From Eledone cirrhosa (taxonomy: Eukaryota), in contig OZ024751.1 of the NCBI GenBank assembly GCA_964016885.1, positions 42,904,001 to 42,968,000 of the forward strand: a stretch of 64,000 bases of DNA, given 5' to 3'. Below the pieces are notes generated by a model. That model made no database searches, was not told the origin of the DNA, and worked only from the letters and a program-made list of their open reading frames with translations. Shown one piece after another: positions 31,961 to 32,783 of the stretch. Each line of letters starts with the position of its first letter. Position 1 is the stretch's first letter. The position numbers were made by a program, and so were the translations under genes.

Positions 31961-32783
31961 ATAAAGAATTCATATCTAGTAACATATATATACATACAGA
32001 TGCATATCAATGCTAGCAAATATATAGGTTTTGTCTTAATAACAGTTTGGTTCAATGCATGGGGTTGCAGAACAATAATATAAGAGACGTAAAATAAGAA
32101 AATTATAAAATTAACTTACTTACTAAAATATCACTTCCAACTAATTAGTTTCTGGAATGGAGTAAATATATTTTCCAAAGAATAATATAGAGAAGCATTC
32201 AGGAAGTGATATTTTAGTAAGTAAGTTAATTTTATAATTTTCTTATTTTACGTCTCTTATATTATTGTTCTGCAACCCCATGCATTGAACCACACTGTTA
32301 TTAAGACAAAACCTATATATTTGCTAGCATTGATATGCATCTGTATGTATATATATGTTACTAGATATGAATTCTTTATTATTATCTCCAAATTATTTGT
32401 CGAGCAATATTGGCCATGACTGCTGCTACGGTTGTAGGCAGGCCGCTGTCTTATTAGCAAACCACTTTCCACTGATTGACCTCGATGTCACGTGTTCGAT
32501 TCTTTTTGAATTTGCCACAGACGTAGAGGCAGTGATTTTCTCAATGGCTTGGAATTCAGTCCACGCTTCGCTATTTCCTATCCACTGAATTATTTTTTAA
32601 TAAGTTTCCATTGTCCTCGCTTTGCCTTGAAACCTACATGAGAATAGACTTTCCTGACGACGGAATGCTTTTCTGTATATTATTCTTCGGAAAATATATT
32701 TACTCCATTCCAGAAACTAATTAGTTGGAAGTGATATTTTAGTAAGTAAGTTAATTTTATAATTTTCTTATTTTACGTCTCTT
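31961..32783 (+). mobile_element. retrozyme/Penelope-like element: inverted arm (31961-32200), 525-nt monomer (32202-32726), start of next monomer
   Basis: 32202-32258 is repeated at 32727-32783; left arm is the reverse complement of the HHR 3' part plus monomer start; in (TA)n. Confidence 0.85.
32648..32732 (+). ncRNA. type I hammerhead with extended stem II
   Basis: actttc CTGACGA c-ggaatg...cattcc-a GAAA ctaattag TT ggaagt; palindromic stem III, GUU triplet, predicted cut after 32726. Confidence 0.75.

Follow-up and report, generated by a model that had tools for sequence, protein, structure and literature searches.

The 64,000-nucleotide stretch of the Eledone cirrhosa genome analysed here (the window; G000:C11:42904001-42968000, in a (TA)n-rich genome of 3.0 Gb) contains one copy of a young, non-coding, tandem repeat family that is probably a non-autonomous retroelement of the non-LTR retrozyme type, for which a Penelope-like element would supply the reverse transcriptase/GIY-YIG endonuclease; self-cleavage and RNA circles are among the predicted features of the family. 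Insertion in this family follows a strict two-ended rule, whereby each inverted insert combines one short and one long end. The 5' end of the copy in the window coincides with the predicted cut of a hammerhead ribozyme and had been taken, in an initial annotation, as the footprint of self-cleavage in vivo, a reading that is not supported by the 5' ends of the other genomic copies. Within each unit, a three-base error hot spot singles out one particular site in the RNA.

The window copy and its family

Unit positions are numbered from the first base after the predicted cut (position 1) to the cut base itself (position 523). The left flank of the window copy (31838-31960) consists of (CT)n followed by a (TA)n run, the likely insertion target. 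The inverted arm (31961-32200, minus strand) carries positions 462-523 followed by 1-178/181 and terminates in what we call the long fixed 3' end; aligned from 31958/31961 to 32200, it matches positions 462 to the end and 1-181 at 98% identity over 245 nt. As initially annotated, this arm starts inside stem II of the hammerhead, and this 5' truncation leaves its hammerhead without the CUGANGA core. A single extra base at the junction (32201) fits the continuation of neither arm. The full direct unit (32202-32726, plus strand) is 525 nt long and does begin at the predicted cut with GGAAGTG; upstream of 32202 there is no match to a preceding unit (backward extension of 0). The start of the unit is repeated exactly over 61 nt (32727-32787, plus strand), up to the short fixed 3' end at position 57-61, and the final 4-5 nt or so blend into the (TA)n sequence of the right flank (32783-32955), such that the 57 nt originally assigned to this repeat is a reasonable lower bound. 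The monomer length of 525 nt holds for the window copy and not for the family, the consensus unit of which, derived from 38 units, is 523 nt: the direct unit carries a 2-nt insertion at the hot spot (positions 472-474; 32673-32677, plus strand), where it differs from the uninserted inverted arm.

With its long-ended inverted arm and short-ended direct arm, the window copy is typical of the family. The (TA)n sequence on both flanks hides any target-site duplication (criterion, >4 bp). The copy has one complete hammerhead, compared with two consecutive complete ones in the copies described as active in the accessible text of bioRxiv 10.64898/2026.07.22.740005, and this lowers the claim to activity for that copy alone and not for the family, many other copies of which contain at least two complete hammerheads.

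A similarity search of the genome yielded 2580 candidates, 40 of which were scored; the top copies are 98-99% identical. The exact 29-mer that follows the cut occurs 1532 times in the genome, which scales to about 1,200-1,230 arms. Tandem arrays reach 5 junctions in the sample of loci described below, with a type I hammerhead predicted in each unit and no LTR structure seen. GC content is 33% (window 32001-34000), and the circularised consensus has a predicted fold with z=-4.8 against 30 shuffles. A small protein encoded by a 73-codon frame was considered and rejected: of 110 units, 46 have the frame open and 50 a stop at codon 5, and the frame is absent from three subfamilies or broken and was not seen in the sister family sequences. 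Two sister families share the layout; their units measure 535 nt and 524 nt, with 76% and 87% identity, respectively. A fourth relative forms a tandem array of at least 53 kb with a spacing of about 527 nt (G000:C5:84670030-84723865). The proposal that the window harbours a second retrozyme-like family, larger than the 310-nt family also found there, was correct in that the two are distinct.

A predicted type I hammerhead with a long stem II

The hammerhead proposed at 32648-32732 (plus strand) would comprise stem I (32648-32653/32727-32732), the core CUGACGA (32654-32660), stem II (32662-32711), GAAA (32713-32716), and a 3-bp stem III with a palindromic loop, followed by the GUU cut site after 32726. 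Stem II is, as had been suggested, unusually long: it spans 50 nt, is interrupted and is capped by a UUCG hairpin, with an extra C before it and an extra A after it, ahead of GAAA. These two bases are family traits and not signs of decay.

An Rfam search, at the gathering threshold and at E<=10, gave no hammerhead match in the window. Covariation was assessed in 10 variants, representing four subfamilies and four related families, where 96% of the cells are paired and 7 of 23 pairs have changed on both sides; none of 500 shuffles reached such a value, and slid controls were 37-49% paired, although the structure was drawn by us from the tested sequences themselves and their relatedness inflates the shuffle test. 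These compensatory changes support the predicted type I fold. The GAGAA block at 32640-32644 (plus strand), invariant in the 10 variants, is the complement of 32669-32673, a segment of the internal loop of stem II, and is a possible pseudoknot partner; the putative pairing is complete (100%) in the variants, yet 4 of its 5 pairs never vary, so that covariation lends it no support.

Fixed 3' ends in strict short and long pairs

The ends of the family copies were examined at all loci that contain the first 100 of the 1514 post-cut matches preceded by the expected T (see below). Duplicate overlapping loci were merged, and 16 of 121 arms were dropped for being shorter than 45 nt, less than 88% identical or at the edge of a locus, leaving 105 arms from 61 loci. 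This sample was not selected by ends, spans C1:6-153 Mb only, and required one exact post-cut 30-mer per locus.

The 3' ends fall into two classes, with 48 of the 105 arms ending at 54-66 and 47 at 172-185, and 91 of these 95 canonical ends abut (TA)n. A head-to-head layout is present in 39 of the 61 loci, 33 of which have two canonical ends, and all 33 pair a short with a long end (P about 2e-10); among single arms, short and long ends are equally represented (10:10). The pairing is found also in the sister families, in 17 of 17 cases in the 535-nt family and in 7 of 9 in the 524-nt family, the remainder being one short+short and one long+long pair. At the 39 head-to-head junctions, the arms overlap in 21 cases and are joined bluntly in 6; another 5 carry 1-3 additional bases, and 7 have larger inserts. 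That each inverted insert draws once on each of the two priming sites, 120 nt apart, is a direct prediction for a dimeric enzyme acting on one RNA.

5' ends relative to the predicted cut

The 5' ends are scattered over the whole unit. The initial annotation had called for a search for an enrichment of the 5' ends of other copies at GGAAGTG, and no significant excess was detected, either genome-wide or in the sample. The base preceding the 1532 post-cut sites is the expected T in 1514 and another base in 18; the latter comprise 11 cases of point mutation in which the hammerhead is intact, one small deletion, an 81-nt deletion that ends at the cut and is present in 2 copies, and 4 arms that start exactly at the cut, the window copy among them. 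Genome-wide, 2.4-2.9 such starts are expected (P=0.21-0.34). None of the 105 sampled arms begins at the cut, and 6 begin within 10 nt of it compared to 4.2 expected.

A second pattern, covering positions 518-1, produced 37 matches that were classified by eye as 16 indels and 21 truncations, the latter distributed over positions 518-523 as 4, 2, 3, 2, 2 and 8. At 523, one base upstream of the cut, the 8 arms are more than the local mean of 2.6 would predict (P=0.005). Four of them derive from a single fold-back junction sequence found at two loci, and the remaining 4 lie against (TA)n, with identical flanks in two cases; if 5-6 events are counted as independent, the excess has P=0.05-0.12. Altogether, arms that start at or beside the cut account for at most about 1% (12 seen of ~1,230).

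Where units continue across the cut site, there is no scar or nearly none, with units of one insertion differing there in 0-1 of 60 loci. A scar-free site is expected if the templates are uncut multimers or cleanly ligated circles, and an RNA circle, which the initial annotation had also invoked as a template, would leave no 5' end at the cut at all. The start of that copy at the cut is probably a matter of chance, most likely an ordinary truncation, and templates ending at the cut are a small minority at most.

The competing explanation, which we consider rather unlikely, is that a small minority of the templates are cleaved and that copying of the direct arm in the window went as far as the real 5' terminus of an RNA cut by the hammerhead. 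The window copy itself argues for it, ending exactly at the cut without microhomology, as does the count of starts, 4 for position 1 and no fewer than 8 for 523, given that run-off followed by the addition of one untemplated A would resemble the latter; position 442 is, moreover, joined exactly to position 1 at two loci (L047 and L048). Against it, the excess fraction implied by 4 starts compared to 2.4-2.9 expected is 27-41% at best and not significant, the 518-1 window is merely 1.5-1.8 times as rich in ends as two control windows (P=0.2-0.3), and the cases at 523 are confounded by (TA)n microhomology and by fold-back at a 12-nt palindrome that precedes the cut. Two of the three other arms that start at the cut have microhomology of 2-4 nt at the junction.

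Two further arrangements at the cut were observed. L047 and L048 share a unit that lacks positions 443-523, that is, the whole hammerhead upstream of the cut, and is joined exactly at the cut. At three other places (G000:C2:124429303, C12:28337885 and C6:34996576), two head-to-head arms both start at the cut, separated by a spacer of 3-4 nt; these junctions could be collapsed fold-backs at the 12-nt palindrome or products of double run-off.

A copying hot spot at positions 472-474

Among 63 loci, 28 have units of one insertion that differ from each other at position 473; the corresponding counts are 18 for 474, 17 for 472 and 0 for 475, compared to 1.8% for the median position (L088, which contains two insertions, was excluded from these counts). 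The hot spot is present in all four subfamilies, any of the four bases can be found at each of its three positions, and the length is changed in 14 of 193 units. It is not an effect of age, because the differences occur in loci that are nearly free of any others. Alleles agree in 38-53% of the larger classes of within-locus pairs, regardless of place, and in 12.6% of the pairs between loci of a subfamily, indicating that the state of the hot spot is partly inherited and partly set anew at each pass. A difference at 473 makes one at 474 neither more nor less likely (odds ratio, 1.04).

The hot spot is not a general trait of the relatives: in the 535-nt family, just 1-2 of 20 loci are affected per position, and in the 524-nt family, 1 of 6 loci, with 29 of 31 units sharing one allele, but these loci were picked by likeness to a query with that allele. 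A simple structure-based lesion does not explain this shortage in the sister families. The sister families (L160-L189 and L230-L254) have variation of another kind: a 4-nt repeat at about positions 20-25 differs among the units of an insertion at 16-17 of 23 loci and at 6-9 of 15-16, respectively; in the main family, it varies in 3 units among the variants listed.

The polymerase appears to err at 472-474 on a large share of its passes, and the likeliest cause is a putative template lesion that is read through, such as a modified base or an abnormal link; we favour this over strand transfer at an RNA 5' end and the latter over an abnormal junction. A-to-I editing as the sole cause was rejected, explaining A>G at 474 (51 of 179 units) and not T>A/C/G at 473 (77 of 179). 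A run-off peak was likewise rejected: 5 of the 17 stem II truncations in the sample end at 473-474, all with TA microhomology.

The two explanations that involve a discontinuity of the template, in the form of a 5' end with strand transfer or of an abnormal circle or lariat junction, would mean that the genuine footprint of RNA processing lies at 472-474, 50 nt upstream of the cut, with the arrays arising from repeated passage and the hammerhead, if it acts, setting the RNA's 3' end. Such a footprint is possible, if on balance doubtful; were it real, it would, together with the strict short-plus-long priming, amount to a genome-readable record of the unsolved transposition cycle of Penelope elements.

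The first version, unlikely in our judgement, has the RNA start near 474, inside stem II, such that the first hammerhead would be unable to cut and the next one would make the 3' end. The product would be a 573-nt RNA with a 50-nt terminal repeat, and run-off, addition of untemplated bases and transfer to the repeat, as in retroviral strand transfer, would generate tandem arrays with one scar per unit. The sharp boundary (475 in 0 of 63 loci and 474 in 18) is as expected for errors made after copying 475, TA insertions of +2 and +4 suggest realignment, last and upstream units are equally discordant (concordant in 19 of 36 and 24 of 55 cases), and the intact cut sites would be accounted for as well. 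In newt satellite 2, the promoter is offset by about 47 nt from the cut. The internal promoter of that satellite, of the snRNA type (cited in the accessible text of PMC2220036), provides a precedent. No peak of truncations was found at the hot spot genome-wide, however, with 1 in 469-475 compared to 3 in the control segment 435-441, nor was an snRNA-type promoter that would place the start at 474, the proximal element of this genome's U1/U2 genes being absent from -58 relative to 474. The near absence of the hot spot from both sister families and the independence of 473 and 474 also speak against such a start. A 9-nt match to the proximal promoter element of the genome's U2 lies at about 32579-32591 on the minus strand of the window and is kept in the 535-nt family; it may be due to chance.

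The second version, which we regard as quite improbable, places at 473|474, and not at the hammerhead cut, the junction of a circle or lariat, the abnormal link of which would be misread in each round. The equal error rate in all units fits such a template, as do the variants that are private to one locus in the sample and common to the units of one arm (11 loci), and a polypyrimidine tract with CAG lies 36 nt downstream. There is, however, no known cutter for 473|474, the hot spot is missing from a sister family, and a polymorphism at 486 is mixed within three insertions, which points to more than one template unit and argues against a pure monomer circle. The locus-private variants fit repeated copying or later tandem expansion.

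In the main texts covered by our literature search (supplements, which may hold cephalopod families, and most subscription papers lay outside it), nothing was found on cephalopod retrozymes or on a comparable hot spot.

Proposed mechanism of mobility

Membership of the family in the non-LTR retrozymes is likely, judging from its sequence and predicted structure, with self-cleavage and circular RNA being putative. From the observed layout and the accessible text of PMC11167929, we infer the following mechanism. The enzyme would nick both strands of a (TA)n run, with one nick priming cDNA synthesis at RNA position ~60 and the other at ~180. Both cDNAs would run back through the hammerhead, halt at essentially random places, and then be joined 5'-to-5', mostly by microhomology. 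As reading continues across the cut site in about 99% of cases, the main template would be an uncut multimer or a re-ligated circle and not a cleaved linear monomer. This scheme bears on how Penelope-like elements and retrozymes generate tandem and inverted copies, and on the use that they make of the hammerhead.

GIY-YIG matches number at least 150 in the genome, which also contains several long ORFs of Penelope-like type. In 38 of the GIY-YIG loci, which were examined for sequence shared between the family and an autonomous element, none was found; the two hits among the GIY-YIG loci (L139 and L150) are relatives inserted nearby or inside.

An ordinary satellite or MITE-like DNA repeat, with an incidental hammerhead and arrays made by DNA recombination, is strongly disfavoured and very improbable: some long arrays do have periodic variants typical of later tandem expansion (L187) and Rfam detects no hammerhead, but fixed 3' and scattered 5' ends, short arrays that are dispersed, the strict pairing of short with long ends and compensatory stems point to target-primed reverse transcription of a structured RNA.

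Comparison with known systems

According to the accessible text of PMC7229834 and bioRxiv 10.64898/2026.07.22.740005, non-LTR retrozymes are non-coding tandem units, each with a type I hammerhead, and have low GC, a strongly self-paired predicted fold and Penelope-like elements alongside, all of which apply to the Eledone family. Unit sizes are given as 150-450 bp (PMC7229834) or 51-972 bp (bioRxiv 10.64898/2026.07.22.740005), such that the 523-nt unit is above the former range and inside the latter. The Eledone family differs in its long, interrupted stem II with one extra base on each side, and neither fixed paired 3' ends nor a single-site hot spot is described in the accessible text of these two papers. 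In the second, 8 of 9 Xenopus elements are stated not to have cleaved. Hammerheads and retrozymes are unmentioned in the accessible main text of an octopus repeat annotation (PMC13282606).

Penelope-like elements, as far as the accessible text of PMC8557442, PMC3846280 and PMC11167929 goes, share with the Eledone family 5' truncation, partial tandems, an inverted arm placed head to head, a one-sided extension, targets that are (TA)n or AT-rich, a pair of internal start sites, and a hammerhead apparently dispensable for insertion. In particular, an inverted 5'-truncated copy, a tail often at one end, and (TA)n targets are reported in PMC8557442, and the anole Penelope protein, predicted to act as a dimer, cuts AT-rich DNA on both strands and extends them, starting at two internal sites, with uncut RNA as its main substrate in vitro (PMC11167929). 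Unlike these elements, the Eledone family has no ORF. Its start sites are ~120 nt apart compared to 30-40 nt, and their pairing is strict (33 of 33), whereas the papers on Penelope-like elements use "often" or "optionally". Both ends of the Eledone copies share 3-5 nt with the (TA)n target, in contrast to the anole element, which starts without homology (PMC11167929). The tail at one end is already known, and its ~120-nt length and the strict pairing are what differs from published Penelope-like elements.

The minimal hammerheads of Penelope-like elements, in the accessible text of PMC4209133, resemble the predicted Eledone ribozyme in the extra base between position 9 and G10.1, the G10.1-C11.1 pair, the long helix II, and a palindromic loop 3 suited to folding as a dimer. 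The Eledone family differs in having a second conserved extra base, the A before GAAA, a GUU triplet, and a 50-nt stem II with an internal loop and a terminal hairpin.

Other repeats and hammerhead-like motifs

The 310-nt tandem family (window 38765-41917) has 8.3 identical units and an inverted arm of 1.9 units; each unit contains a compact motif resembling a type I hammerhead, with an extra base on either side of stem II, and there is no scar from unit to unit. Short motifs similar to those of this family lie at 16561-16600 and 50803-50845. Similar short motifs occur near Penelope-like ORFs at L151 and L157 and are a lead to the partner of the 310-nt family. Elsewhere (L132/L154:2358), a hammerhead-like motif with the same extra A before GAAA has a Penelope-like ORF nearby on the opposite strand.

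At 8465-10047, a 500-nt unit that is itself a long inverted repeat is present three times, bounded by (TA)n and with CUGAUGA...GAAA motifs on both strands; it may be a head-to-head insert that was later triplicated. A 357-nt tandem of 2.3 copies (25103-25908) contains a piece found also at 13385-13876, which we take to be like the C-terminal part of a non-LTR retrotransposon ORF. An Rfam plastid hit at 42042-42112 is spurious, caused by a near-perfect GC-rich palindrome at those coordinates. Further arrays in the window have units of 37 nt (605-1192) and 62 nt (4322-5197), and a large 37-nt minisatellite with at least 116 overlapping matches occupies 55110-59700.
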